The notes beneath the pieces were generated by a model that saw only the letters and a list, made by a program, of their open reading frames with translations, was not told where the DNA came from and did not search any database. From an uncultured Alphaproteobacteria bacterium (GTDB lineage: Bacteria > Pseudomonadota > Alphaproteobacteria > Rhizobiales > Amorphaceae), in contig OY969922.1 of NCBI GenBank assembly GCA_963704595.1, forward strand, positions 3,754,660 through 3,818,659: a DNA stretch of 64,000 nucleotides. Direction: 5' to 3'. A program made the position numbers and the translations under genes. Positions 1,665 to 62,995 of the stretch are shown in pieces (the stretch's first letter is position 1; each line of letters starts with the position of its first letter).

Positions 1665-2271
1665 ATGAACAATCCTTCGCTTTGTTTCGCGGTGATCGAC
1701 GCCGAGCCGCCGCGCGCCGTCGCCGCCTGGGGCACCGTTTCGGAGCGCGAGACCTGGGAGCGGCACTACCTCGTCGGCGGCGACCACAGCCTGTGCCTGT
1801 CGCAGGCCCGCCGCGTCTTCCTCACCGCTCACGGCAGCCACGACGGGTTCCGCACCCAAACCATCATGCTCGACGCCGCCTTCCCGCTCGACTGGATGGC
1901 GCTCAACGTGATCGAACGGACACTGCCCCGTCGCCTGCGCGGCCTCGAGATCGACGGCACCGACGCGCAGTCCTTCGTCGATGCGCTCGCCGTCCCCGAC
2001 CTCGTGCAGGCGAGCGTCCACCGCGTCGCGCGCACCGCCGTCGTCGGCGCCACCACGGTCGAGACCAGCACACTCACCGTGCCGCAATGGAATGCGACCG
2101 CGGTCGCCACCACCTTCGAAAGCCGCAATCCCCATGCGCTTGCGCGCTGTGGTCGCCAGCGCGGGCCTCGGCGCCCGCCAGCACCAGGATCTGCGCGACT
2201 GGCTGCAGGCGATCGCCGCGGCGCAGACCCCCGCCCCGGTGCCGCGCCAGCGGTTCGCCATCGCGAGCTGA
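1665..2271 (+). CDS. Hypothetical protein, apparently frame-shifted (N-terminal part in the frame of ORF 831..2288, C-terminal part in ORF 1981..2271)
   Basis: ATG at 1665 follows the sseA stop. Both frames read like real protein in their own segment; the last ~40 codons of the first frame look like GC noise. No family recognised. Confidence 0.4.
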
Positions 2272-2368
2272 GCCGCCGGTCCGGCTGACCGCCGGAGCCA
2301 TGCAAAACTGCAATGGCGGTCGCCATCGCCGCCCTTGCGCCCGCCAGGGCGCCGGGCGATAGCGGCAT

Positions 2369-3283
2369 ATGGAACATCACCCGACCGTCCCCGTCACTGC
2401 GTCCGCGGCGAGCAACAACACGCTGCGCGGCGTCGCCTTCATCGTGACCGCGATGGTCATCTTCTCGGCTCAGGACGGCCTGTCGAAGGCGCTGGCGGAC
2501 AATCACTCCGCCATCTTCGTGACCATGTGGCGCTACTGGGCCTTCGGCGCGGTGTGTTTCGTCCTCCTCTGGCGCAAGGGCTTTCGCACCGGCCTTGCAT
2601 CCGGCCAGCCACGGCTGCAGGTCGCGCGCAGCGTCACGCTGGCGCTCGAGATCATCGTCGCCATTGCCGCATTCGCCCTTCTCGGCCTTGCCCCCAGCCA
2701 CGCGATCTTCGCGTTCATGCCGCTTCTGGTGGTGGCGCTGTCGGGGCCGGTGCTCGGCGAAAAGGTCGGCTGGCGGCGCTGGTCTGCCGTCGGCGTCGGC
2801 CTCATCGGCATGCTCCTCATCATCCGGCCCGGCACGCGCGCGCTGACGCCCGAGATCGGCGTCGCGCTGGTCGCGGTGTTCATGTTTGCCGCCTACCAGC
2901 TGATGACCCGCCGCGTCTCCCGCACCGACACCGCGATGACGAGCTTCTACTACACCGGCATCATCGGCGCGGTGACGATGACGCTGATCGGCCCGTGGTT
3001 CTGGTCGTGGATGACGCCCTGGGAAGCCGTCATGATGGCGACCCTGTGCGTCACCGGGATGACCGGGCACTACCTGATGATCAAGGCGTTCGAGGCCGCG
3101 GAGGCGTCCGCGATCCAGCCGTTCATGTACCTGCAGACGGTGATGGCGACCGGCATCGGCGTCACGGTCTTCGGCGAGGTGCTGAGCCCGTGGACGGTCC
3201 TCGGCGGCGCCATCGTCATCGGCGCCGGCCTCTTCGCCTTCTGGCGCGAACGCGTCCGCGCCAAGGCCGCCCTCCGCCGCTGA
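2369..3283 (+). CDS. DMT superfamily transporter (EamA family, 10 TM)
   Basis: 304-aa polytopic membrane protein with two EamA-like halves. Confidence 0.8.
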   Translation: MEHHPTVPVTASAASNNTLRGVAFIVTAMVIFSAQDGLSKALADNHSAIFVTMWRYWAFGAVCFVLLWRKGFRTGLASGQPRLQVARSVTLALEIIVAIAAFALLGLAPSHAIFAFMPLLVVALSGPVLGEKVGWRRWSAVGVGLIGMLLIIRPGTRALTPEIGVALVAVFMFAAYQLMTRRVSRTDTAMTSFYYTGIIGAVTMTLIGPWFWSWMTPWEAVMMATLCVTGMTGHYLMIKAFEAAEASAIQPFMYLQTVMATGIGVTVFGEVLSPWTVLGGAIVIGAGLFAFWRERVRAKAALRR

Positions 3284-3790
3284 CGGCGGCCCGGCCCGGG
3301 GGCGTGCGGGGCTCTGGCGGCTGCGGGACGCTGGCGGTTGCGGGACGCTGGCGGTTGCGGGACGCTGGCGCCGTCTCCACGGTGCAACGTGGCGACCGGC
3401 ATCGGCGTTACGGTTTTCGACGAAGTCCTGAGCCAGTGGATGGCCTAGGCGGCGCCACCGCGTCATCGGCGCAGGCCTCTTCACCTTCTGGCGCGAACGC
3501 GTCCGCGCCAAGGCCGCCCTCCGCCGCTGACGGCGGACCGGCCCGCCGGCTTGCGGGGCTATGGCGCCGCCTCACTATACCAACATGGCGACCGGCATCG
3601 GCGTCACGGTCTTCGGCGAAGTGCTGAACCCCTGGATGGTCCTGGGCGGCGCCATCGTCATAGGCGCAGGCCTCTTCGCCTTCTGGCGCGAACGCGTCCG
3701 CGCCAAGGCCTCCCTCCGCCGCTGGCGGAGGACCGGCCCGGCCACTGCGGGGCTCTTGCGCTGTCTGACGATGCCAACGCGGCGCGTTTA
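3143..3790 (+). repeat. Three tandem, diverging copies (~200-250 bp each; starts ~3143, ~3389, ~3585) of the last ~145 bp of the DMT gene plus its 3' flank
   Basis: Direct reading: the segment encoding MATGIGVTVFGEVL..FWRERVRAKAALRR* recurs twice downstream with ~10% divergence. Copy 2 contains in-frame stops; copy 3 keeps an ORF (3561..3836). Confidence 0.85.
3316..3373 (+). repeat. 17-bp microsatellite (gcgggacgctggcggtt) x3 inside copy 1 of the tandem array
   Basis: Read directly from the sequence. Confidence 0.85.
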
Positions 3791-3997
3791 TCGGAGCGTT
3801 GGCGACGGGTGGCGCGAACGAGCGGGTGCGGGGTGAATGCCACGACGTGGAAGAAGGCAGTCCCGTGGGCGGCGCGGTGTGCTGCACATGATGGCTGTTC
3901 ATTGCCAGAAGACGATGCCAAATACGGCTCGTCCGCCCGCAACCTCGTACTTGCATGGAGCTGTGAGCGAACGCGCGTGTTCGAGCGGGGAACGCGG

Positions 3998-4453
3998 TCA
4001 GGTCGTGCCGTAGACCTTGTCGGCGCGCTCCTCGAAGGCGGAGGCGAAGCGGCGGAACGCCCGGTCGAAGACCGAGCCCATCACCGTGGCCAGCGTCCGG
4101 CTCTTGAACTCGTAGCGAATGTCGAAGTTGACGTCGCAGGAGTGCTCGTCGACCGGAGTGAAGGTCCAGCGATTCTTCAGCTCCTGGAACGGGCCGTCGA
4201 GATACTCCACATCGATGATGTCGTTGGCCCGGTCGAGGACGACGCGTGAGGTGAACGTCTCGCGGATGAACTTGTAGGCGACGGTCATCTCCGCGACCAG
4301 CACCTCGCGCCCGTCGGCCAGCGTGTCGCGGCGGCGCACGGTGAGCGAGCGGCACAGCGGCACGAACCGCGGGTAGGACTTCACGTCCGCCACGAGGTCG
4401 AACATGTTGGGCGCGGCGTGCTTGACGCGGCGGGTCGTCTCAAACTGCGGCAT
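3998..4453 (-). CDS. ratA: SRPBCC-family protein (RatA/YfjG-like, CoQ-binding/polyketide-cyclase fold)
   Basis: 151 aa; family-level match; overlaps the 3' end of lipA by 14 nt, the usual alphaproteobacterial arrangement. Confidence 0.75.
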
Positions 4454-5426
4454 TGGCCGCCGCCGTCGTTCCCTTCTGCGCGAACCGCTCCTGCCTTGCG
4501 GCCTTCAGCTTCGCGAAGTCCTCGCCCGCATGATAGGACGAGCGGGTCAGCGGCGAGGCCGAAACCATCAGGAAGCCCTTGGCGTAGGCGATGGTCTGGT
4601 AGGCCGCGAAGCTCTTCGGCGGCACGTATTCGGCCACCGCGTAGTGCTTGCGGGTCGGCTGCAGGTACTGGCCGATGGTCAGGAAGTCGACGTCGGCGGA
4701 GCGCAGGTCGTCCATCAGCTGGAGCACCTCGTTCCGCGTCTCGCCGAGACCGATCATGATGCCGGACTTGGTGAAGATCGTGGGATCCAGCATCTTCACC
4801 TGATCGAGCAGACGCAGCGAATGGAAGTAGCGCGCGCCCGGGCGGACGTTGAGGTAGAGCGACGGCACGGTCTCGAGGTTGTGGTTGAAGACGTCCGGCC
4901 GCGCCTCGACGACGCGCTCCATGGCGCCCGGCTTGCGCAGGAAGTCCGGCGTCAGCACCTCGATCGTCGTGCCGGGGGATGCGTCGCGGATCGCGCGGAT
5001 GGTCTCCGCCATGTGGTTGGCGCCGCCGTCGTCGAGGTCGTCACGGTCGACGGAGGTGACGACAACGTGCTCGAGGCCCAGCGTCGCGACTGCTTCGGCG
5101 ACCTTGCGCGGCTCGGCAGGATCGAGCGGCTGCGGGCGCCCGGTCCGCACGTTGCAGAAGGCGCAGGCGCGTGTGCAGGTGTCGCCCATGATCATGAACG
5201 TGGCGTGGCGCTTCGACCAGCACTCGCCGATATTGGGGCAGCCAGCTTCCTCGCAGACGGTGACGAGACCCTTCTCGCGCACGAGGTCGCGCGTTTCACG
5301 CCATACGGGGGACGTCGGCGCCTTGACCCTGATCCAGTCGGGCTTGCGTGCCACAGGGCTTTCCGCCCGGCCCACCTTTTCCGGGTGCCGCGGCTGTACG
5401 TTTACCCTGTCGACCACAGTGACCAT
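4440..5426 (-). CDS. lipA: Lipoyl synthase
   Basis: Radical-SAM motifs [12 protein letters not shown] and [10 protein letters not shown]. Start taken at MVTVVDR (5426); the ORF track extends to 5528 with an unlikely N-terminal extension. Confidence 0.92.
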
Positions 5427-5573
5427 AGGTTCGGATCCCCCTTCGCGTGCCCGCAACATAGGGGCTTTTCCGCCATGACGCGAGGGTCTTGGAAGCTGCG
5501 TCGCACCCCGCGCATGGCACCGATGCAACTGCCGCGGCCAGCAGGCGGCTACGGATCAGCGAAGCGAAGCCGG

Positions 5574-6050
5574 TCAGAAGACGAAATCGTCTTCCTCCGC
5601 GGGTTCGAACGCGTTCTCAAGATAGTCGACGCGGCCGCCGGCCCAGACAAGCGCGATATCGAAGCGGATGTTGTAGCCGGCATAGCGTTCGTTTTCGGCG
5701 AGCCATGCATTGGCGGCACGGGTGATCCTGCGGATCTTGCGCGCGTCCACCGATTCGAGGCCGCCCCAGCCACTGCGGCGCGCCTTGACCTCGACGAAGG
5801 CGACGGTGTCGCCGCGGATCGCCACCAGATCGAGTTCGGCGCGTCCGACGAGGACACGCGTGCCTAGAACCGTGTAGTCACCCGCCCGAAGGAACTGACG
5901 GATCGAACGCTCGCTTTCCACGCCGAAGCGGAACGCGCTGCGGCGCGACGCGGCCTTGCGCTCAAGAGGGCGTGTGAGTGCGAGCGGCCAGTTGAAGGAC
6001 GGGACGACGTCCGCCGCCGCGAATTGCACGCTCATCGCCACACCTCTCAC
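5574..6050 (-). CDS. yraN: YraN family protein (UPF0102, endonuclease-like)
   Basis: 158 aa; contains the conserved VEVKAR block. True start may be MSVQF at ~6035. Confidence 0.7.
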   Translation of the reverse strand: MRGVAMSVQFAAADVVPSFNWPLALTRPLERKAASRRSAFRFGVESERSIRQFLRAGDYTVLGTRVLVGRAELDLVAIRGDTVAFVEVKARRSGWGGLESVDARKIRRITRAANAWLAENERYAGYNIRFDIALVWAGGRVDYLENAFEPAEEDDFVF

Positions 6051-6107
6051 CAGACAACGACCCGCACCCTACAACCGGAGAGAGAATATTGCAACCGTCC
6101 TTGGTCG

Positions 6108-8111
6108 TCAGCGTGCTTCGGTGGCAGCCTCGCGCACCTCGATCGCGGTCTCGGTGATGGAAGGTTCGATCGGTGTGAAGGATACCGCACCGACATCCAC
6201 CGGAACCTGCGGTCTTGGCGGCGGCAGTGGTGCGCGGCCGCCGCCGATGATCGTGCCTGAAAGCGGATCGGGGCGGGTCTCGTCGGCGCCGCCTATGGCG
6301 ATATCGACCATCTCGAGGTTGCGGACCGGCTCCAGGTACGTGAGCGGCAGCGCCTCGGGCTGTGGCCGCAGCGGGAGCCGGAGGTCTTCGGGAAGCGGGT
6401 TGGACTTCGGGCTGGCCCGGGACGGGAGCCAGTCGTCCGGGGCGAATTCGGCGCGTGCCATCAGGGGCGCAGGCTGAGCTGGCTGCGATGGGGGCTGGCC
6501 GGGGCGTGCGAGGGGGAACGTGACGGGCGAGGTGCTCGTCCAGGAGGCGGGCACGAGCTCGGCGCCGGCGAATTCGCGCGGGGCGGCGTCCTTCGGCGGC
6601 GCAGGGCGCTCGGGCGCTTCCTCGGCGGCTGTTTCTTCGTCCCGGGCGTCGTCCCGTTCCGCGGGCGCTGCATCGCCGGCGTCCGGAGCAGCTTCGTCTG
6701 CCGAAGCGGGACCCTCGGCTGACACGGTTTCTCCCTCCGGCGGATCGGATGCGTCAGGGTTGGGCGCCACGATGGGGTCTTCCTGGGCCGCCACATAATT
6801 GGATTCGGATGTGCCGGGTGTCTGCGCCGCATCGGCTACAGGCGCATCGGCACTCGCAACCTCTGTAGTCTCAGCGGCGGGTTGCGCCTCTTCGGTGGGG
6901 CTCGCCGCCTCGGCTGCGGCGGGCTCGGTGGGAGCGTCGCGGGGGGTGGCGAGGGCGGCGCGGACCGCGTCGTCGCGGGCGTTGCGAGCCTTCTGCCACG
7001 CGAGCAACGCCTCGCGCTGGGCCTCGAAGGCGGCAAGGCCGGTGTTGACGCCGTTGTCGTAGCGGGTCACCGGGCGGCGCGCTCCGCAGACTGTGCTGCG
7101 GATGTCGGCGACCGGCTCGTCGGCGGCGGGAAGCTCGGCGACGGTGCCCATCTCAGGCCGCTCTCCGGTCACGGGGGCGTAGGCGAAAAGGGCGTCGGGC
7201 TCGTCGAAGCCGTCGAGGGCGATGGCGCCGCCGCTCTCGAGCGCCTCGAACCCCTTGGCGAGGAGCTCGGCGGTCCGCTCGTCGCGTTCGCGCGAGGTGG
7301 TGCCACCGAGAACCACGGCGCCGAGGCGCACGCCGTCGCGGGTGACCGTTGCCGCAAGGTTGAAGCCGGAAGCGCAGATGAAACCGGTCTTCATCCCGTC
7401 GGTGCCGCGGAACTTGCGCATCAGGTTGTTGTGGTTGCGCATCACCTGCTTGCCGAGCCGCACGCCGCCCATGTCGAAATAGTCCGCGAACTGCGGAAAG
7501 TCGTTCTGGATCGCCATCATCAGGAGCGCCATGTCGCGCGCGGTGATGATCTGGCGCGAGTTGGGGAGCCCGTGCGGGTTGTCGAACGAGGAAGAGCTCA
7601 TCCCGAGGTCGGCGGCCGTCTTGTTCATCGCGTCGATGAAGCGGCCCGAAGTGCCGCTGACGGCCTCCGCCAGCGCGACCGAGACGTCGTTGGCGGACTT
7701 GGTGAGGATGATCCTGAGCGCGGTTTCGACCGTTATGACGGTGCCGACCTTGAAGCCCATCCGGCTCGGCGGCTGCTGGCTCGCCTGCGGCGAGATCCGC
7801 ACCGGCGACGTCATCGCCAGCGTCTCGGCCTCAATCGCCTTGAAGGTGACGTAGGCCGTCATCAGCTTGGTGAGCGAGGCGGGATACCACGGCGTCGACG
7901 CCCGGTGCTTGGCGAGGACCTTGCCGTTCGCCATGTCGAACAGGAGGTAGGCGCCGATCTCCGCCCGCGCCGACGCCAGCGGCACGAGGCAGACCGCGAG
8001 CACCAGGACGAGCCGTGCGATCGCCCCGCGGCTTGCGGCGCAAGCGGCGCACCGGAAGGCGCCGCGCGCCAGTCCCGTCCGCAAGATCGCACTGCCGCTG
8101 AGCCGCTTCAC
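6108..8111 (-). CDS. dacA: D-alanyl-D-alanine carboxypeptidase (peptidase S11, PBP5/6-like) with a ~330-aa Pro/Ala/Glu-rich C-terminal tail
   Basis: Signal peptide; SxxK (SLTKLM) active-site motif plus SAN and KTG; residues ~330-667 are low complexity. Confidence 0.85.
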   Translation of the reverse strand: MKRLSGSAILRTGLARGAFRCAACAASRGAIARLVLVLAVCLVPLASARAEIGAYLLFDMANGKVLAKHRASTPWYPASLTKLMTAYVTFKAIEAETLAMTSPVRISPQASQQPPSRMGFKVGTVITVETALRIILTKSANDVSVALAEAVSGTSGRFIDAMNKTAADLGMSSSSFDNPHGLPNSRQIITARDMALLMMAIQNDFPQFADYFDMGGVRLGKQVMRNHNNLMRKFRGTDGMKTGFICASGFNLAATVTRDGVRLGAVVLGGTTSRERDERTAELLAKGFEALESGGAIALDGFDEPDALFAYAPVTGERPEMGTVAELPAADEPVADIRSTVCGARRPVTRYDNGVNTGLAAFEAQREALLAWQKARNARDDAVRAALATPRDAPTEPAAAEAASPTEEAQPAAETTEVASADAPVADAAQTPGTSESNYVAAQEDPIVAPNPDASDPPEGETVSAEGPASADEAAPDAGDAAPAERDDARDEETAAEEAPERPAPPKDAAPREFAGAELVPASWTSTSPVTFPLARPGQPPSQPAQPAPLMARAEFAPDDWLPSRASPKSNPLPEDLRLPLRPQPEALPLTYLEPVRNLEMVDIAIGGADETRPDPLSGTIIGGGRAPLPPPRPQVPVDVGAVSFTPIEPSITETAIEVREAATEAR

Positions 8112-8228
8112 GCCATATCCCCGATCGTTCTCGCAGGCGGGCGGACCGGACGAGGGTCCCCTATGCCGGCTGCGCGCTTGTGAGTATCACTCACCTGCGG
8201 CCGGACATCGACCGCACAGTTCAAGTTT

Positions 8229-8513
8229 ATGGGAAAGCGTTCGATCATGGGAACCGTCAGAGACAGGATCATTGCGCGGTTGAGTGACGAATTCTCACCG
8301 CAGGCCCTCGAGGTGATCGACGAATCGCACCTCCATGCGGGCCATTCCGGCGCCCGGCCCGAGGGCGAAACGCACTTTCGCGTCATTTTGACCGCGGACG
8401 CCTTTCGCGGCACCAGCCGGCTAGAGCGGCACCGGATGGTGAACGCAGCGCTGGCCTCCGAGCTCGCAGGTCCGGTCCACGCGCTTGCCGTGAAGGCCGA
8501 CGCCCCGGCCTGA
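8229..8513 (+). CDS. bolA: BolA family transcriptional regulator
   Basis: 94 aa; BolA-like helix-turn-helix region (SHLHAGH ... FRV). Confidence 0.75.
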   Translation: MGKRSIMGTVRDRIIARLSDEFSPQALEVIDESHLHAGHSGARPEGETHFRVILTADAFRGTSRLERHRMVNAALASELAGPVHALAVKADAPA

Positions 8514-8537
8514 ACGGGCGCGGCCGCCCGCCGCGGC

Positions 8538-9236
8538 TCAGGCTTCCGGGAGCGCCTCGATGCCGCCGCGTGCCGCGCTCCAGGCGAGCGGTGCGCGCAG
8601 GAACTCGTCGACCTCGTCGAGCTCGGCCGCGGGGAGCGCTTCGGTGTCGCGCGCGGCCGCGAGGACGTCGGCCCACCTTGCGAGCGAGTGGATCGCGATG
8701 CCGTGCTCGGCGAGGCGGTCGCGGCTTCCGGGGAAGACGTCGTGGTGGAAAACCACGAAGCAGTGCGAGACGGTGGCCCCCGCCTCCCGCAGCGCCTCGA
8801 CGAATCGCACCTTGCTGCCACCGTCGGTGGCGAGATCCTCGACGAGAAGCACCCGCTGGCCGGGCGTGAGATCGCCCTCGATCTGCGCCAGCCGGCCGAA
8901 GCCCTTGGGCTTCTTGCGCACGTACTGCATGGGGAGCGCCAGGCGGTCGGCAATCCAGGCCGCGAACGGAATGCCTGCCGTTTCGCCGCCCGCCACCGCG
9001 TCGAACGCCTCAAGCCCCGCAACGTCGGCCATCGCCGTCAGCGACAGGTCGATGAGGCGCGAGCGCACCCGCGGAAAGCCGATGATCTTGCGGCAATCGA
9101 CGTACACCGGGCTTTTCAGGCCGCTCGTGTAGGTGAAGGGCTCGCTCGGGGAAAGATGGACGGCGCCGATCTCGAGCAGCGCACGGGCAGTGATTGCCGC
9201 GATCTCCTCGCGGGTCGCAACGGGAAATGAAATCAT
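8538..9236 (-). CDS. pyrE: Orotate phosphoribosyltransferase
   Basis: PRPP-binding motif VLLVEDLATDGGS. Start at MISFPV (9236); the ORF track N-terminus up to 9389 is spurious. Confidence 0.9.
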   Translation of the reverse strand: MISFPVATREEIAAITARALLEIGAVHLSPSEPFTYTSGLKSPVYVDCRKIIGFPRVRSRLIDLSLTAMADVAGLEAFDAVAGGETAGIPFAAWIADRLALPMQYVRKKPKGFGRLAQIEGDLTPGQRVLLVEDLATDGGSKVRFVEALREAGATVSHCFVVFHHDVFPGSRDRLAEHGIAIHSLARWADVLAAARDTEALPAAELDEVDEFLRAPLAWSAARGGIEALPEA

Positions 9237-9306
9237 TGAGGCCTCCAGCGGCTGACATCTGCCACGCCGGGGGCGCTTTGCGCAATCGGGCCGTGCGGGG
9301 ACGGGC

Positions 9307-10218
9307 TCAGCGCCGGGTCGCCGCCGCGCGAAGGCCCGCCTTCCAGTCCGCCAGCGTGGTGCCCTCGCGGTCGAGCGTGGCGGCGACATCGTCGATCAGG
9401 CGCACCATCGTCGCCGGCCGGTGGAGCGTCCCCGTGCCGACCGCGACCGCCGCGGCGCCGGCTGCGAAATAGTCCCGCATATCGGCGAGCGTCAGGACGC
9501 CGCCGCAGCCGACGATGGGGATCGCGACGCGGGCGACCATGTCGTCGACGATGCGCAGGCCGACGGGCTTCAGCGGCGGACCGGAGAGGCCGCCTGTGCG
9601 GTTGGACACACGCGGGGCGCCGGTTTCGCCCAGCGCCATCGCCGGCATGGTGTTGCTTGCGATCAGCGCGTCCGCCCCTGCGGCCTCGCAGGCCAGCGCG
9701 ACGGCGCCGGGCGCCGTGGCGGCGGGGGTGAGCTTGCACCACAGCGGCTTGGTGCTGACGGCGCGGCAGCCGGCGACGACGGCCTCCGCGTCCCTCGGGT
9801 CGGCGGCGAAGATCCGCCCGCCCGCCTCGAGGTTGGGGCAGGAAAGGTTGAGCTCCACCGCGTCGGCGTCGGTGGCCGACAGGCGCTCGGCGAGTTCGGC
9901 GAACTCGGCGGCGGTGTCGGCCGAAACCGAGACGATCACGGGCGGCCGGTGCGCCTTGTAGAGGGGCAGCACGTCGCGGATGAAGGCCTCGACGCCGTCC
10001 GACGGGATGCCGATGGCGTTGATGATGCCCCCGGCCGCCTCCGCAAGGCGCGGCGCGGGATGGCCGCGGCGTGCGCCGGGCGTGATCGTCTTGGGCACCA
10101 GTGCGCCGAGCCGGTCGATGTCGAACACGCGGGCGTGCTGGAGGCCGAACGTGCCCGACGCGGGAATGACGGGGCACGCCAGCGCGACCCCGCCGAGGGT
10201 GAGCGAGAGGTCGGCCAT
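9307..10218 (-). CDS. pyrD: Dihydroorotate dehydrogenase, catalytic subunit (class 1B)
   Basis: Start at MADLSLTL; DHOD motifs IGIPSDG and NLSCPN; follows the pyrK electron-transfer subunit gene. Confidence 0.9.
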   Translation of the reverse strand: MADLSLTLGGVALACPVIPASGTFGLQHARVFDIDRLGALVPKTITPGARRGHPAPRLAEAAGGIINAIGIPSDGVEAFIRDVLPLYKAHRPPVIVSVSADTAAEFAELAERLSATDADAVELNLSCPNLEAGGRIFAADPRDAEAVVAGCRAVSTKPLWCKLTPAATAPGAVALACEAAGADALIASNTMPAMALGETGAPRVSNRTGGLSGPPLKPVGLRIVDDMVARVAIPIVGCGGVLTLADMRDYFAAGAAAVAVGTGTLHRPATMVRLIDDVAATLDREGTTLADWKAGLRAAATRR

Positions 10219-10992
10219 CAGCCGCGCCCCCCGAAATCGGGCTGGCCCAGCGGGAAGATCGGCCCCTCGCAGACGAGGAGCTGCGGTCCCGCGCGGGTGT
10301 CGTGGATGCACACCTTGCAGACGCCGAGGCCGCACGCCATCGCCGCCTGCAGCGACGCCTCGCCTGGAATGCCGGCGCGCGCGGCGTAGGCCTGCGCGAT
10401 TCCCATCGCCGCGTTGCCCGCCCCGGCGGCGACGAAGCCCGGCTTCTGCGCAGAGAGCGCGGCGTCGAGACCGCCGAGCGGCACGTAATCGACGGCGGCT
10501 CCGGTTGCCTTGAAGGCAGCGAGCAGCGGGCCGTCGGACGGGTTTTTCCCGTCCTCGACCATCAGGACGCGGTCATCGTGACCCGCGGCGCGGCGCTCGT
10601 GGCAAAGTGCCAGCATCGTTCCGGCGTGGAAGGCGTCGGCGACGATGGCGATCGGCGCGTCAGGCGCAGAAAAGGTGTTGCCGAGGGGGCCGATGAGCGC
10701 GACGCGGTCGCCGGGCCGGGCAGCCGCCAGCATCTGCGTCCCGGCGCGCTTGATGTTGAAGGCGATGGCGAGTTGCTCCGTCCATCCGCGGCACGAGGCT
10801 GAGCGGCCGGGGCAGGATCGGCGCGCCCGGCGCAAGGCTCGCCAGCATCGCGAACTGCCCTGCGCGCGCACCGCGGAACGCGTCCGGCCAGTCGAGCCTC
10901 AGCTCGCAGACCGTGCCGTCGACGGTGATGGAAGTGACGGTGCAGTCGACGTCGACGACATCGCGCACGGTGGGGGCGGCGGCTTCGCTCAT
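10218..10992 (-). CDS. pyrK: Dihydroorotate dehydrogenase electron-transfer subunit (FAD/2Fe-2S), interrupted by a 1-nt frame shift near 10778
   Basis: N-terminal half is ORF 10660..10992 (FAD-binding region, RPLSLVPRMDG); C-terminal half is ORF 10218..10871 (TEQLAIAFNIKRAG ... CGLGVCKVC, the 2Fe-2S cysteines); the two are in different frames. Confidence 0.8.
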
Positions 10993-12015
10993 CGGGCGTC
11001 CATGAAGGCGGAGAGGAAGGCTGCGGCGTTGTCGGTGAGTGCTGGCGCGAGGTAGCCGCCCTCCTGCACGAGCGCGACCGGCAGCCCCGACGCACCGATC
11101 AACGCCCCTGCCCTGCGCATTCCTTCAGTGGTGACCGCCATGCCGCCGAGCGGGTCGCTTTCGTGCGCGTCGAACCCGAGGGCGAGGACGATGCGTATCC
11201 GCGCCGAAGCGGGCGATGTCGCCGAGCCCCGCCTCGAGGGCTGCGAGCCAGGCGTCGTCGCGGCTTCTCATCGGGAGCGGCCGGTTGACGTTGTAGCCCT
11301 CGCCGGGGCCGGCGCCGGTCTCCGCCGCATGACCGACGAACCAGGGATAGAAGTTGTGCGGGTCGGCGTGGATCGACACCGTCAACACGTCCCGCCGCTC
11401 GTAGAAGATCGCCTGCGTGCCGTTGCCGTGGTGGACGTCGATGTCGAGGATCGCGGGGCGCGCGCCTTTTGCCGCGAGGTGCGCGGCGCAGATGGCGGCA
11501 TTGTTGAGGAAGCAGTGGCCGCCGGCGACTTCGGCGCTCGCGTGGTGGCCGGGCGGGCGCGTCAGCGCGTAGGCCTCGCGCGCGCCGTCCGCCAGAGCGT
11601 TCGCGGCGGCGACGGCGCACTCCGCGGCACGGCGCGCGGCATGGCCGGTGTGCGGGCCGACCGGGCAGGCAAGGTCGCTCATGTGCCACCCGGCGCGGCC
11701 GACGAGCCCGTCCGGATAGGTCGCCTCGGCGCGGCGCGGCTGGGCGTTGCCCACCACCTCCGCCCCGGCGCCGGTGATCGCCTGCCAACCTTCGAAGGCG
11801 TGCTCCAGGAATGCCAGGTAGCGGGGGGTGTGCACCGCGGCGAGCGGCGCGATGCCGGCGTCCGGCGGGGACTCGTGGGTGAGGCCGACTTCGCCGAGCG
11901 CCGCGAGGAGGCGCTTTGCCCGTTCGGCGCGCTCCTCGTTGGCGGCGACCCGGCCGCGCAGAAGGAAGAACTCCGGCGCGTGCGCCTCTGTCTCCGGGGC
12001 ATAGAATACGCGCAT
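10989..12015 (-). CDS. Histone-deacetylase-family protein (acetoin utilisation AcuC / acetylpolyamine amidohydrolase-like), 1-nt frame shift near 11215
   Basis: Start at MRVFYAPETEAH; motifs PPGHHA, DIDVHHGNGTQ. After FGADT the annotated frame degenerates, while the +1 frame gives the canonical IVLALGFDAHESDPLGGM ... EGGY and ends at ~10989. Confidence 0.8.
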
Positions 12016-12151
12016 GGGGCCTCCACGGTCGCGGGCGGCGGGGATGATCGCCGGCACCGCGGCAACGCCGGAGGCAGGCAATAGCGCGCGCATTCGGCGC
12101 GGCGCAAGCGCCGGCGGGGGATCGGGCCAGCCATTGGAAGACGAAGGGGGA

Positions 12152-12226
12152 TGGAGCGGGCGATGGGGATCGAACCCACGACATCAAGCTTGGGAAGCTT
12201 GCGTTCTACCGCTGAACTACACCCGC
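12152..12226 (-). tRNA. tRNA-Gly (anticodon CCC), CCA encoded
   Basis: Reverse complement GCGGGTGTAGTTCAGCGGTAGAACG...CUUCCCAAG...GGTTCGATCCCCATCGCCCGCTCCA folds as a cloverleaf: 7-bp acceptor stem with one G-U pair, anticodon loop UUCCCAA, T-loop GGTTCGATCC. Confidence 0.9.
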
Positions 12227-12373
12227 ATGACGCGCACATCAGTCCGAACGGTGGGCGATGTCAAGCCGGGTTCAGGCGGTTCCGGCTAACCGTCGGAGCG
12301 CTTGACCGTCATGCCGCGCCGCAGCATGAGGAGCCGGCCCTATCACCCCCATGCCAACCGGAGTTGCCCCGTG

Positions 12374-13189
12374 CTCGAGCGTATCCGCAAACTGGTGACG
12401 TCCCGCGCCTGGGAAGGGATGATCATCACCATCATCCTCATCAACGCCGCGATCCTCGGGCTGATGACCTCGGACAGTGCGATGGCCGCCGCGGGGCCGG
12501 TTCTGGTCGCGCTCGACCAGATCATCATTGCCATCTTCATCATCGAGATCGTCCTGCGGATCGCGGTGTTTCGCGTCCGCTTCTTCACCGACCCATGGAG
12601 CTTGTTCGACCTCCTGGTCGTGCTGATCGCGGTCGCGCCGGCGACGCGCGAGTTCTCCGTGCTGCGCTCGCTGCGGATCCTTCGGGTGCTGCGGCTGATC
12701 TCGGTCGTTCCGTCGCTCAAGCGGGTGGTCGGCGGGCTGATCGCGGCGCTCCCCGGCATGGCCTCGATCATGTTCCTGATGGCCCTGATCTTCTACGTCT
12801 TTGCAGTGATGGCGACGTCGCTCTACGGCGACAGCTTCCCGGACTGGTTCGGCACGGTGGGCGAGTCCTTCTATTCGCTGTTCCAGATCATGACGCTGGA
12901 ATCGTGGTCGATGGGGATCGTGCGCCCGGTGATGGAGGCGCACCCCTATGCGTGGGTCTTCTTCGTTCCGTTCATCATGGTGACCTCGTTCGCTGTCCTG
13001 AACCTTTTCATCGGTATCATCGTCTCCGGGATGCAGCAGGACGTGGAGGCGGAGGCTGCCGCCAGCCGCGACGCGATGATGGAGGAGCAGTCCTCCATGC
13101 ACGACGACATCAAGGCCCTGCGACGCGACGTCGGGGCCTTGCGCGAGGCTCTCGCGCGGCAGGGAACGACCGGCCCCGGCGCGGGCTGA
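12374..13189 (+). CDS. Voltage-gated sodium channel, single-domain bacterial type (BacNav / NaChBac / NavAb family)
   Basis: GTG start 7 nt after GGAG. S4 reads LRSLRILRVLRLISVVPSLKRV (Arg every third residue). Selectivity filter FQIMTLESWSMGIVRPV and S6 are near-identical to NavAb. C-terminal coiled coil DDIKALRRDVGALREALARQG. Confidence 0.9.
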   Translation, partial: LERIRKLVTSRAWEGMIITIILINAAILGLMTSDSAMAAAGPVLVALDQIIIAIFIIEIVLRIAVFRVRFFTDPWSLFDLLVVLIAVAPATREFSVLRSLRILRVLRLISVVPSLKRVVGGLIAALPGMASIMFLMALIFYVFAVMATSLYGDSFPDWFGTVGESFYSLFQIMTLESWSMGIVRPVMEAHPYAWVFFVPFIMVTSFAVLNLFIGIIVSGMQQDVEAEAAASRDAMMEEQSSMHDDIKALRRDVGALREALARQGTTGPGAG

Positions 13190-13324
13190 GGGGCGCGGCG
13201 CCGGCACCGGCACCCTGTCGGCGAAAGCCCCAGGCGACCATCGCATGAGATGAAGCGGACTGCCTCGGCGCGCGGAAAGCCCTTCGCGCGCCACGAGGTC
13301 CAATTCGTAGATGGAGGTTCGCCA

Positions 13325-13930
13325 ATGCGTGCCCGTGCATTCGCTGCAGCGCTCTGCGGTGCGGCAATCGCCCTCCAGGCGCAAGCGTCTGAGGTTCCGC
13401 CCAACCCGAAGCAGCTGATCAACGCGGAGGTCATTGCCGAGGTTCAGGAGATGCTTGCGCGCGAGGTGGTCTCCTATGCACTCAGGAACTACAACCGCTC
13501 GCGCGCCGGGCTGACGCAGGACGACATCCTCGCGCTCGACGCCAGGTGGAAGGACGAGCGCGAACGCGAACGCAAGCCGCTCATCGTGGGGACGCTGTCC
13601 AACCCCCTCTCCTCCTACCTGACGCGGATACAGGCGCGTTCGGCCGGCCTCTACGCGGAGATCTTCGTGACCGACGAGAACGGCCTCAACGCCGGGCAGA
13701 GCAGCGTCACCAGCGACATGTGGCAGGGCGACGAGGCGAAGTTCCAGGAAACCTTCGACAAGGGCTCCGGCGCCGTCTTCATCGACGAGGCCGAGTGGAA
13801 CGACGAGAGCAAGACCTGGCGCGCCCAGCTCAACCTGACGATCGACGATCCGGCGAGCGGGGAACCGATCGGCGCTGCCACCTTCGAGATCAATCTGACC
13901 GAACTCCAGAGGCGGGCCGCCCAGTCATGA
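13325..13930 (+). CDS. Periplasmic single Cache/PDC-like domain protein (stand-alone, signal peptide)
   Basis: GGAGG ribosome-binding site; signal peptide MRARAFAAALCGAAIALQAQA; alpha/beta sensor-like domain; stop overlaps the chemoreceptor start (ATGA). Confidence 0.6.
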   Translation: MRARAFAAALCGAAIALQAQASEVPPNPKQLINAEVIAEVQEMLAREVVSYALRNYNRSRAGLTQDDILALDARWKDERERERKPLIVGTLSNPLSSYLTRIQARSAGLYAEIFVTDENGLNAGQSSVTSDMWQGDEAKFQETFDKGSGAVFIDEAEWNDESKTWRAQLNLTIDDPASGEPIGAATFEINLTELQRRAAQS

Positions 13931-15619
13931 AAAATCTCTCGATCGCCAACAAGGGCACGCTCGCCTGCGGCGCCATCGCGCTGATCTCGATCGCCGCATT
14001 CGGCATCGTGATCTGGTCGACGATGATGCAGTCGCGCACCACCGAGCAGGTGCTCCAGACCTACCGGCTCGCCGTTGCGACGGTGGAATATCGCGACGCC
14101 ATGGAGAAAGGGCACGCCTACCTCCTGCAGAAGCTCGTCCTCGGCGAAGATGTCGAGGAAGAGGAGGTGCGCGCGGCGTTCGACGATTCGCGCAGGCAGC
14201 TGGAATCCATCCGCGACTATGTGGACGGCCTCGATGGCGACGACGCGTTCATCGCCCGTCTCGACACGATCGCGGCCCTGCGGGATGAATGGTTCCGCGA
14301 CATCGCTCTCCTCCAGATCCGCGACATGGGCGACCCCTTCCGCGTCGATCTCGCCAGGCTTCGCGAGAACGACGTGCGTGGCCGCGAGATCTGGGTGATC
14401 CTCGACGAGGAGATGAAAGCGCTGATCGCCGAGTTGCGGAATTCTCCGGCAGGTGTATACGAAGCATCTCGAGCAGGAGCAGACCATACTCCTCACCAGC
14501 GGCATCGTGGGCGGCGTCATCGTCACCCTCCTGTCCATGTTCGTTACGATATTCGTGCGCCGCCAGATCGCAGCTCCGCTGCGCGATCACACCGGCGTCG
14601 CGCTGGCGCTGCGCTCCCACGACTGGTCGGTCGCGATCCCGCACCTCAAGCGGCAGGACGAGATCGGCGAACTCGGCCGCGCCCTCCAGACCCTGCGCGA
14701 CGAGGGCAAGATCGCGGAGGAAAACGACGCCAAGTACCGCGTCGAATTGGAGGCTCAGATCAAGCAGGCCGCCGCGATGAAGCGTGCCTCGGACGAGTTC
14801 AAGACGACGTCGGCCGCCGTGCTCGACGAACTGGAATCGGCCGGTCTCGCCCTTGCGGAGGCTGCGCACTCGCTCGGCCTGCGCGCCGGCGAGGGCCACG
14901 CGCTCACCAGCAGCGTCGCGGAGGCTGCATCGTCTTCCGGCTCCAACATGCAGAGCGTCGCCGCCGCGATCGAGGAGATGTCGATCTCGGTCGACGAGAT
15001 CAGCCGTCAGGTCCAGGCCGCGACGCAGCTGACGCAGCAGACCACGCAGGCCTCGCAGGCGGCGATCGAGCAGGTCTCGGGCCTGCTCGAAAAGTCCAAG
15101 AAGATCAACGATGTCATCCAGATCATCGACAACATCGCAGAGCAGATCAACCTTCTCGCCCTCAACGCGACCATCGAATCGGCGCGTGCCGGCGAGGCCG
15201 GCAAGGGATTTGCGGTGGTGGCCCAGCAGGTGAAGGAGCTCGCGGACCAGACCGGCAGCGCGACGGAGGAAATCTCCAAGGTCATCAACGACGTGCGCAA
15301 GGAGATCTCGGACGTTGTGCTCGCCATCGAGGGCATCGGCACCTCGATCAACGCGGTGAACGACAACTCGTCCACCGTCGCCGCTGCGGTCGAGCAGCAG
15401 AGCGCCGCGATCAACGAGATCTCTTCCAACGTCGGCGCGGTATCGACCCAGACCAACACGGTCGCCAGCAACGTCAAGGGCGTCGCCAAGCAGATCGGCG
15501 AGACGCACAGCCTCGCCGAGAACGTCCGCGGCCTCTCCTCCCGCGTGAAGGACAACGGCGCGAAGATGCAGAAGGAGATCGCGTCCTTCTTCGAAGCGAT
15601 CCGCAACCGCGCCGCCTGA
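13927..15619 (+). CDS. Methyl-accepting chemotaxis protein (4HB periplasmic domain, HAMP, MCP signalling domain), 1-nt frame shift near 14450
   Basis: N-terminal part (TM1 plus helical periplasmic domain) lies in the frame of ORF 13546..15687. TM2, HAMP and the signalling domain ([24 protein letters not shown]) lie in ORF 14453..15619. Confidence 0.85.
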
Positions 15620-15874
15620 CCCGGCCGCGGGCCTCCCCGGCCCGCGCGCCATCGCTCTCCGTGCCGCTGCATGACGTGAGAACCTAGCGCTAGCCGCCGG
15701 GCACGGTCCCGCTCACGGGCAGCCCGACGGCACGCCGGTCGGACGGCACCGGGGAACGGAGGCTCCGCCCGAGCCGGTGGCACCCCGGTGCTCGGGCCTG
15801 ACCAGCACTGAAGGCATAGGTGCGCCGCGCATAAACGCCTTCCTCAGAAAGTCCGAGCGGCCTAATGCGGTTCG

Positions 15875-16747: not shown

Positions 16748-16811
16748 AACAACCGCCACCGCGCCCGGCGAGCCGACCCACGCGATCGCGAGCCCGCCAC
16801 CTGGAGCCCCG

Positions 16812-17850: not shown

Positions 17851-17946
17851 GCAGGCAGGCAGCGTTGCGCGCTCAAAAACGCTATGCTATCGCCCGCCCG
17901 AAACGTGAGGCCGCCGCGCCGCCCTTTCAGAAAGAGACGACACGCT

Positions 17947-22209: not shown

Positions 22210-22212
22210 TCC

Positions 22213-48912: not shown

Positions 48913-49628
48913 GTCGCCTGTGCTGCAATCAGCCATTCGCGGTTGCCGTCGCCCCCTTCGATGGGCGACGCGGTGCGCCCCATAATTGAAAATCCGGCCG
49001 CCGCGACGGCCGCCTCGACGCGGTCGACCGCGGAGAGCGCGGCGCCCTCGTCCCGCACGATGCCGCCCTTGCCGATCTCGGCCCGCCCCACCTCGAACTG
49101 CGGCTTGACCAGCGCCACCATGCGCGCCGCCGGCGCCGCTGTCGCCAGAACCGCGGGCAGCACCAGCGTCAGCGAGATGAAGCTGACGTCGAAGGTGAGG
49201 AAATCAGGCCGGTAGGCGAGATCTGCGGCCGTCAGCGTCCGCGCGTTCGTGCCGTCCATCACGGTGACCCGCGGGTCGTCCGCGATCACCGGCGCAAGCT
49301 GGCCGTGGCCGACGTCCAGTGCGATCACATGGGCAGCGCCGCGGCGCAAGAGGACTTCGGTGAAGCCGCCGGTGGAGGCCCCGGTGTCGAGCGCCCTCGC
49401 CCCCGCCGGATCGAGGCCGAAATGGTCCAGCGCATGGACGAGCTTGTGCGCGCCGCGGCCGACATAAGGGTCGGCCTCCGCGGTTAGCACGGCGCCGTGC
49501 GCAACGTTCTGGCCGGGTCGTTTCGCGGGCGCGCCGTCGACCGTGACGGCACCGCGCAGGATCGCCTCGCGCGCCTGGCTGCGGGTGCGGGCAAGGCCGC
49601 GTTCGACGAGGAGCTGGTCGAGGCGCAC
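48909..49628 (-). CDS. tlyA: TlyA family rRNA (cytidine-2'-O)-methyltransferase
   Basis: S4 domain followed by FtsJ-like MTase (LDTGASTGGFTEVLL). Confidence 0.88.
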   Translation of the reverse strand: MRLDQLLVERGLARTRSQAREAILRGAVTVDGAPAKRPGQNVAHGAVLTAEADPYVGRGAHKLVHALDHFGLDPAGARALDTGASTGGFTEVLLRRGAAHVIALDVGHGQLAPVIADDPRVTVMDGTNARTLTAADLAYRPDFLTFDVSFISLTLVLPAVLATAAPAARMVALVKPQFEVGRAEIGKGGIVRDEGAALSAVDRVEAAVAAAGFSIMGRTASPIEGGDGNREWLIAAQAT

Positions 49629-58446: not shown

Positions 58447-60316
58447 CTACGCTGCGTTCTCGGAAACGGCGCTGCGCTCGGCGCGCTTGCGGTCGTTCGG
58501 GTCGAGGTGGATCTTGCGCAGGCGGATGTTCTTCGGCGTCACTTCGACGAGCTCGAAGTCGTTGATGTAGCTCAGCGCACGCTCGAGGCTCATGCGGATC
58601 GGCGGGGTCAGCTTCACCGCGTCGTCCTTGCCGGACGCGCGCATGTTGGTGAGCTGCTTGCCCTTGATCACGTTGACCTCGAGGTCGTTGCCGCGGGTGT
58701 GCTCGCCCACGATCATCCCGCGATAGACCGTCGTGCCGGGCTCGATGAACATCGGCCCGCGGTCTTCGAGGTTGAACATCGCGAACGCAACCGCGTCGCC
58801 GTCCGCGTTGGCGATCAGGACGCCTGTGTGGCGGGTCGGGATCGCGCCCTTGTGCGGCACGTATTCGTGGAACACGCGGTTCATGATGCCGGTGCCGCGC
58901 GTGTCGGACAGGAGCTCGCCCTGGTAGCCGATGAGCCCGCGCGTCGGCGCGTGGAGAACGATGCGGGTGCGGCCCGCGCCGGACGGCTTCATCTCGACGA
59001 GATCAGCCTTGCGCTCGGACAGCTTCTGGATGACGGAGCCCGAATGCTCGTCGTCCACGTCGATGGTGACTTCCTCGATCGGCTCCAGCAGCGAGCCGTC
59101 CTCGGCCTTCTGCATCACCACCTCGGGGCGCGACACGCCGACCTCGAAACCCTCGCGGCGCATGGTCTCGATCAGGATGCCGAGCTGCAGTTCGCCGCGG
59201 CCGGCGACCACGAACGCCTCGCCGCGAGTCGGTGTCCGTGACGCGGAGCGCGACGTTGCCTTCCGCCTCACGGATGAGGCGGTTGCGGATGACGCGGCTC
59301 TGCACCTTGTCGCCCTCGGTGCCCGCCAGCGGCGAATCGTTGACGCGGAAGGTCATCGCCAGCGTCGGCGGGTCGATCGGCTGCGCCGGGATCGCCTCGG
59401 TGACGGAAGTCGCGACGATGGTGTCGGCCACGGTCGCCTTGGTGAGGCCGGTCAGCGAGACGATATCGCCCGCGCGGCCTTCCTCGACCGGAACGCGTTC
59501 GAGCCCGCGGAACGCCAGCACCTTGGACACGCGGCCCATCTCGACCACGTCGCCGTTGCGCGCCAGAGCCTTGACGCTCTGGTTCGGCTTCACGGTGCCC
59601 GACGTGATGCGGCCGGTCAGCATCCGGCCGAGGAACGGGTCGGCCGCGATGGTGGTGGTGAGCATGCGGAACTCGCCCTCTTCCACCGTCGGCTCCGGCA
59701 GGTGCTCGACGATGAGGTCGAGCAGCGGAGCGGTGCCGCGCGAGGTGTCTTCCGGCTTGTCCTTCGGGTCGAGCGCCATCCAGCCCTGCTTGGCGCTGCC
59801 GTACAGGATCGGAAAGTCGAGCTGCTCGTCGGTGGCGCCGAGGGCGTCGAACAGCTCGAACACCTCGTCGATCACTTCCTCGTGCCGCTCTTCCGGCTTG
59901 TCGATCTTGTTGATCGCGACGATCGGCCGGAGGCCCATCTTGAGCGCCTTGCCGACCACGAACTTGGTCTGCGGCATGGGGCCTTCGGCGGCATCCACCA
60001 GGACGACAGCGCCGTCGACCATGGAGAGGATGCGCTCGACCTCGCCGCCGAAGTCGGCGTGGCCGGGGGTGTCGACGATGTTGATGCGGGTCGGCGGGGT
60101 CTTGTCGCTTTCCCACTCGATGCTGGTGACCTTGGCCAGGATCGTGATGCCACGCTCCTTCTCAAGGTCGTTGGAGTCCATCGCGCGCTCAGCGACCCGC
60201 TGGTTGTCACGGAACGAACCGGACTGGCGCAGGAGAACGTCGATCAGCGAAGTCTTGCCATGGTCAACGTGCGCGATAATGGCGACGTTGCGCAGAGCGC
60301 GGCGTGCGGAATTCAT
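58447..60316 (-). CDS. typA: Translational GTPase TypA/BipA, 1-nt frame shift near 59240
   Basis: G1-G4 motifs AHVDHGKT, DTPGH, NKID; ORF 59003..60316 shifts after RVTDTDS into ORF 58447..59271 (GEAFVVAGRGELQLGILIE). Confidence 0.9.
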
Positions 60317-61290: not shown

Positions 61291-61438
61291 GGCGCTGCGC
61301 ATGCCGCGAAAGGCGCTTCCGTTGCAACAGCATTTTGCACGGTGGGTGGCAGCCGAAGGGGCCGCAGGCGGCCCCTTTTGCGAACCAAAGGCGCTGCGGG
61401 CCGTTCTTTCTCAATTGAACAACAGATGGAGCTTCGCA

Positions 61439-61942
61439 ATGCAGGCTACCCGTACGCTCATTCTCGGCGCCCTGATGACCTCGCTCGCCGCCCCGGCGCT
61501 GGCGCAGACCAACGTCGAGGTCGTGGCGCCGGAGGGCGTCGAGGTCGCGGCGCCCGAAGGCGTCGAGGTCGTGTCCCCCGGCGAGACCGTCGCAGCCAAT
61601 TCCGGCGACATCGGCCAGGCGCCTGTCGTCGACGCCGAGAACCTCGTCGAGCTCGACGGCGACTTCGTGCTGCCGGGGCTCAATGTCCCGGTGAGGGCCC
61701 TCGACGACTACGACCTCGTCGACCGCAACGGCGAAGACCTCGGCGAAGTCGAGGAAGTGCTGGGGCCGAACGAGATGACCGCGACTGCCGTCGCGATTGA
61801 GTTCGACGGTCCCGGCTGGTTCTTCAACGACGCCGACGTGACCCGGGTGGTCGACATCGACATGCTGTCGATCGAAGGCGACAAGCTCGTCCTCGACATC
61901 ACCGAGGACAACGTGCGCGCGCTGCCGGTCTACCGGGACTAG
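61439..61942 (+). CDS. Secreted PRC-barrel-like domain protein with an N-terminal (V/A)PEGVEV triple repeat
   Basis: Signal peptide MQATRTLILGALMTSLAAPALAQ; 21-bp x3 DNA repeat at 61513..61585; C-terminal part resembles a PRC barrel. Confidence 0.55.
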   Translation: MQATRTLILGALMTSLAAPALAQTNVEVVAPEGVEVAAPEGVEVVSPGETVAANSGDIGQAPVVDAENLVELDGDFVLPGLNVPVRALDDYDLVDRNGEDLGEVEEVLGPNEMTATAVAIEFDGPGWFFNDADVTRVVDIDMLSIEGDKLVLDITEDNVRALPVYRD

Positions 61943-62995
61943 CGGGCGGGCACGGCCTCCACGGCAATTGCACGCGGCGCGCCCGACAAGGCGCGCCGCA
62001 AGCACGACAGCGGCCCAGAGCGTGATCGCCGCAGTCACCTGATGCGCCCCGGCAAGCACCGGCGGCACCTGATGAAGCACCACCATGATCCCCGACAGCG
62101 CCTGCACGGCGATCAGCGCAAGCACCAGGCTCGCCTGCCGCCTTGGGCTGCCGGGCGCGCCGCTGACGGGTGCGCGCCATGCGAGCACGGCATGGACCAG
62201 GGCAAGCAGCAGCACAGCGTAGCCGACCATCCGGTGGTCGAACTGCACCGTCAGCGGGTTTTCGAAGATGTTGAGCCATGCCGGGGTGATGGCGAGGAGC
62301 CCGTCCGGCACGAGCTTTCCGCCCATCGTCGGCCACGTGTCGCTGGCAAGCCCCGCGTCGAGGCCGGCGACCAGCGCGCCGAGCGCGATCTGGGCGAGGA
62401 GCGCGAACGGCAGCGCGACACCCGTTGCCCGCACCGCACGCGGCACCACGCTGCGCCCCGCACGGCCCGCGAGCCGCTCCGACAGCCACACCGTGAACGA
62501 GAGGATGATGCAGGCGATGCTGAGGTGAACCGCGAGCCGGTAGTGGCTCACGTCGACGCGCTCCGTCAGCCCCGACGTCACCATCCACCAGCCGACGAAG
62601 CCCTGCAGGCCGCCAAGCGCGAGGAGGAGCACGCCCCACGGCTTGAACCAGCCCGGCAGCATCCCGCGCAGCCAGAACACGATGAACGGCAGGAGAAAGA
62701 CGAGGCCGATGGTCCGCGCCACCAGCCGGTGCGCCCATTCCCACAGATAGATCGTCTGGAATTCGCCGAGGCTCATGCCCTTGTTGATGAGCTGGTACTC
62801 GGGGATCTGCCGGTACATCTCGAGCGCATCCTGCCAGCCCTTCTCGGTCAGCGGCGGAATGACGCCGAGCAGCGGCTTCCACTCGGTGATCGAGAGGCCC
62901 GAAATCGGTGATGCGCGTGGCGCCCCCCACGACGAGGGTCGCCACAACGAAAAGGGCCACGATCCGCAGCCACCAGACAATCGCAGGATTTTCAC
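61940..62995 (-). CDS. ctaA: Heme A synthase (COX15/CtaA), 1-nt frame shift near 62905 (TTT run); C-terminal end uncertain
   Basis: MSENPAIVWWLRIVALFVVATLVVGGATRIT then a shift into SGLSITEWKPLLGVIPPL ... EWAHRL ...; conserved His in TM helices. Confidence 0.85.

Follow-up and report, generated by a model that had tools for sequence, protein, structure and literature searches.

Twelve genes in a 64,000-nucleotide (nt) stretch of an uncultured alphaproteobacterial genome (contig OY969922.1; hereafter, the window is this whole stretch) begin in one reading frame and end in another, among them hflK, typA, ctaA and pyrK. This raises the question of whether the genes are decaying, are decoded in an unusual way, or are intact in the organism and broken only in the deposited sequence. 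An earlier note, made from the letters alone, had read the breaks as single-base sequence error in at least 12 genes, and not as pseudogenization. Comparison with orthologues, protein profiles and known structures leads us to the same answer, with corrections to the list of sites and to the type of error. The best explanation, which we hold with high confidence, is an assembly or consensus error that placed spurious single-base insertions in a deposited, single-contig, Acuticoccus-like assembly, and we infer that the extra bases would be absent from the DNA of the organism.

Split genes and their repair

The window has a G+C content of about 69%, and a codon-usage Viterbi pass called approximately 60 genes, with numerous frame switches on the same strand. 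After repair, its TypA is closest to that of Acuticoccus sp. MNP-M23 (96% identity, both 622 amino acids (aa)), and the next-best matches are other Acuticoccus species at 82–87%. Two MNP-M23 loci (L081 and L082; CP133480.1) are collinear with the window from 27.6 to 64 kb at approximately 81% nucleotide identity. In this part, each called MNP-M23 protein was compared with the window by tblastn, and indels were counted in a MAFFT alignment of the 36 kb. From 1 to 28 kb, the checks were made with Pfam, NCBIfam and TIGR00950 profiles, with Protein Data Bank (PDB) structures, with metagenome contigs L092 and L083, and with the MNP-M23 protein P0242; positions 1–27 kb have no close nucleotide reference, and the sites in pyrK, the HDAC-like gene and the EamA gene are placed by profiles or PDB alone. 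L092, used for the methyl-accepting chemotaxis protein (MCP), was the single close contig in a metagenome scan with the ion-channel protein. A scan of genome contigs with ThyA reached a best identity of 70% among the matches listed, with no close relative among them, and about 20 HflK orthologues came from the matches listed in the same scan. A second assembly of the same species was not found, and the nearest cluster members are 91–92% identical.

All 12 genes named in the earlier note are divided between two frames of the same strand, and orthologues or profile coordinates run continuously across each break (Table 1). The note had proposed a TBLASTN comparison with orthologues as a check. 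Between 27.6 and 64 kb, seven genes break in this comparison with MNP-M23: those for TypA, CtaA, RlmD, PotB, the MBL-fold hydrolase, HflK and a 167-aa periplasmic protein. The first six align with their orthologues in two adjacent frames, and the remaining genes, approximately 32, align at full length in a single frame.

Removal of one base (two in ctaA) returns TypA (622 aa), PotB (421 aa), HflK (403 aa), the MBL-fold hydrolase (271 aa), CtaA (352 aa) and the hypothetical protein (201 aa) to the exact length of their orthologues, each ending at its natural stop. With the extra base removed, Pfam matches become single and full length and score higher, and the repaired products examined contain no internal stops. 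The expectation that a one-base edit restores the conserved protein was borne out by orthologue lengths and Pfam matches alike.

Table 1 Frame-changing events in the window
Gene (extent)	Position	Strand	Event
Hypothetical protein gene (1665-2271)	2138-2142	+	+1 insertion; frame +2 to frame +0 after '...ESRNPHAL'
pyrK (10218-10992)	10772-10783	-	+1 shift between '...RPLSLVPRM' and 'EQLAIAFNIKRAGT...'
HDAC-like deacetylase gene (10989-12093)	11192-11196	-	+1 insertion within 'FGAD/T/IVLALGFDAH'
MCP gene (about 13927-15619)	14433-14441	+	+1 insertion
EamA-family transporter gene (about 16812-17850)	17098-17128	+	+1 shift; exact base not resolvable
Periplasmic 167-aa-family protein gene (28856-29436)	29351-29378	-	two +1 insertions (favoured) or one -1 deletion
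hflK (32738-33950)	33134-33138	-	+1 insertion inside 'VDPPQAVIGAFRDV'
MBL-fold hydrolase gene (37320-38136)	37715-37719	+	+1 insertion
potB-like permease gene (42249-43515)	43293-43300	-	+1 insertion
rlmD (47670-48936)	47837-47839	-	+1 insertion; best repair drops one base of a 3-base run (CCC, + strand)
typA/bipA (58447-60316)	59224-59225	-	+1 insertion
ctaA (61940-62999), first event	62902-62904	-	+1 insertion in 'TDSGLSITEWKP'; fits TT to TTT on the gene strand
ctaA, second event	61983-61986	-	+1 insertion 13-14 codons ahead of the stop; open reading frame continues to 60716

Where MNP-M23 serves as the reference, the breaks can be followed almost to the base. In typA, orthologue residues 1–364 stop at 59225 and residues 365–622 begin at 59223; the alignment reads TC[G]CGGC against TC-CGGC, and the best repairs remove a base of run length 1. 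In rlmD, orthologue residues 1–334 and 335–389 abut with exactly nt 47838 skipped, and the repaired protein reads 'ALAASEV' against 'ALAASDV' in the orthologue and matches Pfam tRNA_U5-meth_tr over 206–356/357. The 40 bases that flank the hflK site are 100% identical to MNP-M23 save for one extra C on the + strand within a run of six G (GGGCGGG versus GGGGGG); MNP-M23 HflK breaks at this point, and the more distant HflK orthologues from the genome-contig scan show the same break, at 33132–33136. Residues 1–74 and 64–421 of MNP-M23 PotB fall in different frames. In the MBL-fold hydrolase gene, positions 2–68 and 67–160 of Pfam Lactamase_B_3 are likewise in different frames, and repair joins them into 2–160/160.

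ctaA carries two events. At the first, tblastn places residues 1–34 and 26–337 in different frames, and the repaired COX15-CtaA domain spans 2–321/322. The second, which MAFFT puts at 61985 as a 1-base insertion, costs the gene its stop codon: the frame changes between '...VVLAARL' and 'GAPRAIAVEAVPAR*', where MNP-M23 has 'ARLGSAPRAVGVEAVPAR*' (* marks the stop). The periplasmic gene admits two readings. An extra A at 29378 and an extra T at 29351 (gene strand), 27 bases apart, are favoured over one −1 event near 29371–29378, with an alignment score of 483 against 476 for the best single-deletion model. When the gene is read in three frames against its MNP-M23 orthologue, the conserved block 'GCGCAGACGACG' lies in the intermediate frame, which then meets a TGA; the tblastn alignment of the MNP-M23 protein starts only at residue 18.

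Profiles and more distant sequences place the remaining sites. The MNP-M23 orthologue of the hypothetical protein (P0242, 201 aa, 76% identity) follows frame +2 to '...NPHAL' and frame +0 from 'RAVVASAG...', where the continuation '...ALRAIVASAGYGARQHEDLRDWLQ' fits frame +0; deletion of any base in the tabulated interval yields the 201-aa product, and the extra base may be either a G or one of two adjacent T. The NCBIfam PyrK profile enters the downstream frame exactly at nt 10778 with its positions 60–237, and repaired PyrK gives one continuous alignment over the junction with PDB 1ep1_B, in which the exact base is not resolvable. Pfam Hist_deacetyl is split in the HDAC-like gene, with 3–224 in one frame and 232–297 in the other, and the repaired protein matches 3–296/298 in one stretch (238.5 bits). 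Against a single L092 open reading frame (ORF; 70–88% aa identity), MCP residues 1–175 are in frame 1 and residues 180–520 in frame 2, with the junction at 14427–14441; one L083 ORF likewise aligns first in frame 1 and then in frame 2. In the EamA gene, Pfam EamA positions 3–49 lie in frame +2 and TIGR00950 positions 41–263 in frame +0, and after repair the first domain matches 3–134/135 in one stretch.

These alignments keep the earlier list of genes and move several of its positions. The HDAC-like site is at 11192–11196 and not 11215, and the typA site is at 59224/59225 and not 59240. The periplasmic gene is split as claimed, at 29351 and 29378 and not in the CCCCC run at 29334. The event at the start of ctaA stands, and the one near its end had been missed. 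Two further suspicions fall away: PotA, whose N terminus had been thought possibly affected, is intact with residues 1–371 aligned, and HflC, whose C terminus had been suspected, is intact with residues 1–497 aligned.

Direction, size and sequence context of the events

The events number 13–14 in total, depending on whether the periplasmic gene counts as one deletion or two insertions. Twelve are unambiguously +1, two more are +1 on the favoured reading of the periplasmic gene, and none is clearly −1; 12 against 0 corresponds to a two-sided binomial p of approximately 5e-4. Nine or ten of the 12 unambiguous events consist of exactly one extra base by nucleotide or residue alignment. This is the case at the sites with a close reference and, by residue count over the junction, in the hypothetical and MCP genes; for pyrK, the HDAC-like gene and the EamA gene the +1 direction alone is established. 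Beyond the listed events, the MAFFT alignment of 36 kb with MNP-M23 has no net out-of-frame indel in coding DNA: the sole other out-of-frame gaps between 27.6 and 64 kb are a +32/−59 pair in hflC, with a net change of −27.

The earlier note had taken the breaks for the homopolymer signature of 454, Ion Torrent or unpolished nanopore data. Miscalled homopolymer lengths would account for some of the sites. The best repair is the shortening of a 3-base run at the first ctaA event and in rlmD, and run extension (1 to 2 or 2 to 3) is among the equally good repairs at six more (hflK, potB, MBL, MCP, the hypothetical gene and EamA). A random inserted base, however, equals one of its neighbours about 40–50% of the time, and at least five events are not run extensions: there is no run at the best repair positions in typA, the HDAC-like gene and both periplasmic sites, and hflK is, by parsimony, simplest as a C inside G6. 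The HDAC-like context, TGCGT, contains no homopolymer under any repair, and the periplasmic contexts are GCAT[A]CC and GCC[T]GAC, in neither of which the extra base adjoins an identical base. Runs at the affected sites are all 3 bases or shorter, whereas nanopore assembly errors are reported to be mainly homopolymer deletions in runs of 4–5 bases (PMC12007338). The clear events are not changes of run length as a class, and they include no undercall or deletion, so that neither both directions nor a predominance of deletions is seen. Classic homopolymer miscalls are therefore an unlikely account of the set, although the least unlikely of the alternatives to a spurious-insertion error of another type.

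Several of the extra bases break into runs and do not lengthen them, examples being the C within G6 in hflK and, in the periplasmic gene, the T flanked by C and G. No biological slippage process known to us produces insertions of this kind. Inspection of the site contexts read out revealed no shared motif. When parsed manually, 12 of the 14 sites are compatible with duplication of a third codon position, as might be left by a polymorphism in a collapsed-strain consensus; about two thirds would be expected by chance, the excess is not significant, and we retain the pattern as a lead only.

Between the genes of 27.6–64 kb, 1-base insertions relative to MNP-M23 number 14 and 1-base deletions 6, or 7 and 2 when the count is limited to sites with flanks of at least 80% identity. 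Examples of the insertions are at 43598, 43652, 43669, 58375, 61425 and 63983, of which 43652 lies in the loop of a terminator-like hairpin. The excess fits the same insertion process acting outside genes, in a count that is not significant by itself.

Consensus error, decay and rescue

Assembly or consensus error is favoured because the spectrum is one-directional and of single bases, the repair is clean and the sequence downstream of the breaks has not decayed. What was found is what an indel artefact of this kind predicts: single-base repair, no relaxed selection or other lesions, and a biased, technology-like spectrum. On this explanation, the consensus would carry sporadic spurious single-base insertions at about 1 per 4.5 kb, and each insertion that falls in a gene would cause a +1 shift and make an intact gene mimic two ORFs or a read-through. 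The extra bases would arise at the stage of read consensus or polishing. Insertion-prone long reads at low depth may be the cause, or a collapsed strain mixture whose consensus retained the two alleles of a variable site side by side.

Frameshifts by small indels are a recognized defect of long-read assemblies (proovframe, bioRxiv 10.1101/2021.08.23.457338; R10.4 evaluation, PMC9262707; Kastor, PMC12007338). Here, as in those reports, isolated 1-base indels split conserved, intact genes in a multi-megabase, unannotated single contig, and they are found by orthologue comparison and single-base repair.

Several points weigh against this explanation. The argument from the implausibility of gene loss is weaker than the earlier note had it: hflK, typA, ctaA and pyrK are indeed split, but to call the affected genes essential was an overstatement, as none is known to be strictly essential and model bacteria can, under some conditions, do without hflK, typA/bipA, rlmD, ctaA and pyrK. 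At the pyrK, HDAC-like and EamA sites, a 1-base insertion is indistinguishable from a 2-base deletion, and the periplasmic gene may carry one deletion instead of two insertions. The case is built on one assembly, and a real mutation might lie behind any single site. Finally, the spectrum, insertion-only and largely independent of homopolymers, is unlike the textbook homopolymer deletions published for nanopore data (PMC12007338).

If the insertions were real, the window might record a very recent and massive inactivation of genes, for example in a host-restricted or mutator population, and the split genes would be young pseudogenes. The breaks are, after all, present in the deposited sequence, each affected gene on its own is dispensable to some bacteria, and two genes carry two events each, as dead genes would. 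The disrupted fraction, about 20% of the genes in the window, is large, as in the pseudogene-rich genomes of Mycobacterium leprae and Sodalis glossinidius. Steady pseudogenization, however, should yield lesions mixed in type, size, direction and age, and the lesions here are of one type, one size, one direction and no visible age. The ratio of nonsynonymous to synonymous substitution rates (dN/dS) downstream of the breaks is 0.05–0.16, with no spread of ages as under steady decay; it does not exceed the upstream value except in ctaA, a test that by itself leaves very recent events possible. Amino acid identity is in fact higher downstream than upstream in TypA (98.4% versus 94.5%) and HflK (97.7% versus 95.2%).

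The other marks of decay are also missing from what was searched. No nonsense mutation or larger out-of-frame indel was found where this could be checked; between 27.6 and 64 kb, tblastn against MNP-M23 detected no truncated or split gene besides the listed events, and the other out-of-frame gaps sum to a multiple of 3. No Pfam scan of the window returned a transposase or insertion sequence (IS) family. Natural bacterial indels are expected to occur in both directions, to lean towards deletion and to vary in size, whereas the clear events here are all +1 and, where the size can be read, of exactly one base, and several lie away from slippage-prone runs. The genome, at approximately 4.7 Mb, retains perfect synteny with a free-living relative across 36 kb. 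In contrast to M. leprae and S. glossinidius, the 36 kb with a close reference showed no further truncation and, beyond the listed events, no net out-of-frame indel; no scan returned an IS family, and relaxed selection, loss of synteny and a deletional bias were likewise not seen. We consider recent pseudogenization very improbable.

It is still harder to believe that the extra bases are real and came from a burst of context-independent +1 insertions, caused for example by an intercalating mutagen or a defective polymerase, with about one-fifth of genes lost or rescued at decoding. Least credible of all, to the point of being negligible, is that translation passes over real extra bases, through programmed +1 ribosomal frameshifting or with a four-base-decoding tRNA. 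In favour, all events have the +1 direction in common, the full protein would require a +1 shift as in prfB, and one site, GCC-TGA-C, loosely resembles the CTT-TGA-C of prfB. Against it, many unrelated genes are involved, no common shift-site motif was visible in the contexts read out, and MNP-M23 and other relatives have in-frame orthologues at each site, so that nothing is conserved; the tRNA and transfer-messenger RNA (tmRNA) genes found in the window are limited to a tRNA-Gly(CCC) and a tmRNA, both of ordinary type. Pseudogenization and rescue at decoding are both disfavoured by the lesion spectrum, by orthologues that stay in frame and by the absence of a visible motif.

Public provenance and neighbouring features

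The breaks can be traced to a public record. In a profile-free search of 1.8 billion representative proteins, the 207-aa ORF of the window, out-of-frame tail included, was recovered at 100% identity. Exact look-ups gave a single occurrence for this hypothetical protein, for the TypA fragment of 437 aa and for each of seven intact proteins, all on one unannotated NCBI/ENA contig of 4,706,582 bp. Because the truncated ORFs trace to that contig, the breaks are present in the deposited assembly and were not introduced later, which adds to the support for sequence error. A single, unannotated contig of 4.7 Mb suggests a long-read genome or a metagenome-assembled genome. Two artefactual sequences are by now both database entries and cluster representatives: P0241, the 207-aa hypothetical protein with its out-of-frame C terminus, and P0256, the 437-aa N-terminal fragment of TypA.

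Split genes that are an assembly artefact have low biological interest, and their value is practical, as a warning about this assembly and the database proteins derived from it. Extrapolated from 13–14 events per 64 kb, the 4.7-Mb assembly would contain roughly 1,000 spurious frameshifts. Automated annotation would call truncated proteins or pseudogenes for about one-fifth of the genes, and the artefacts would enter protein databases; conclusions about lost genes, reductive evolution or absent pathways drawn from the unpolished genome would be wrong. The advice that pseudogene calls in the window be distrusted is upheld by the clean repairs and the absence of downstream decay. The insertion-only, context-free spectrum may itself be a useful diagnostic, distinct from the usual homopolymer pattern.

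Other signs of a frame change were rejected as breaks. At 13907, the Viterbi switch marks an ordinary boundary between genes, where a separate, intact gene of 226 aa ends. The odd codon signal at the C terminus of HflC comes from a divergent, low-complexity region, in which the +32/−59 pair is in frame overall; this region is a C-terminal extension of the protein, which hflC (31266–32738, − strand) encodes at the unusual length of 491 aa, against 497 aa in MNP-M23. Similarity in two frames at 35588–35892, upstream of thyA, belongs to a tmRNA gene.

This gene, at 35540–35911 on the + strand, is an intact two-piece (permuted) alphaproteobacterial tmRNA gene with the tag peptide ANDNYAEARLAA. It lies approximately 250 nt upstream of sspB (36162–36710, +), on the same strand. 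The adaptor SspB brings ssrA-tagged proteins to ClpXP. MNP-M23 keeps the arrangement, with 88% identity in the tmRNA region. The tRNA-Gly(CCC) gene (12152–12226, −) is located between the HDAC-like gene and the ion-channel gene and is 92–100% conserved in L083, a relative from a metagenome.

Somewhere in the first 20 kb, synteny with MNP-M23 is probably broken by an indel of about 20 genes, in contrast to 27.6–64 kb, where collinearity is perfect. The MNP-M23 accessions of the hypothetical protein and AtpG, WMS43255 to WMS43294, are approximately 39 numbers apart, and the two genes are approximately 20 genes apart in the window (1665–20985). At 17851–23058 (+), a SIS/CBS (KpsF-like) gene and a KdsA-like gene come immediately after atpH, atpA and atpG, where atpD and atpC would be expected next in an atpHAGDC operon; this order may be natural for the genus or may reflect an assembly join.

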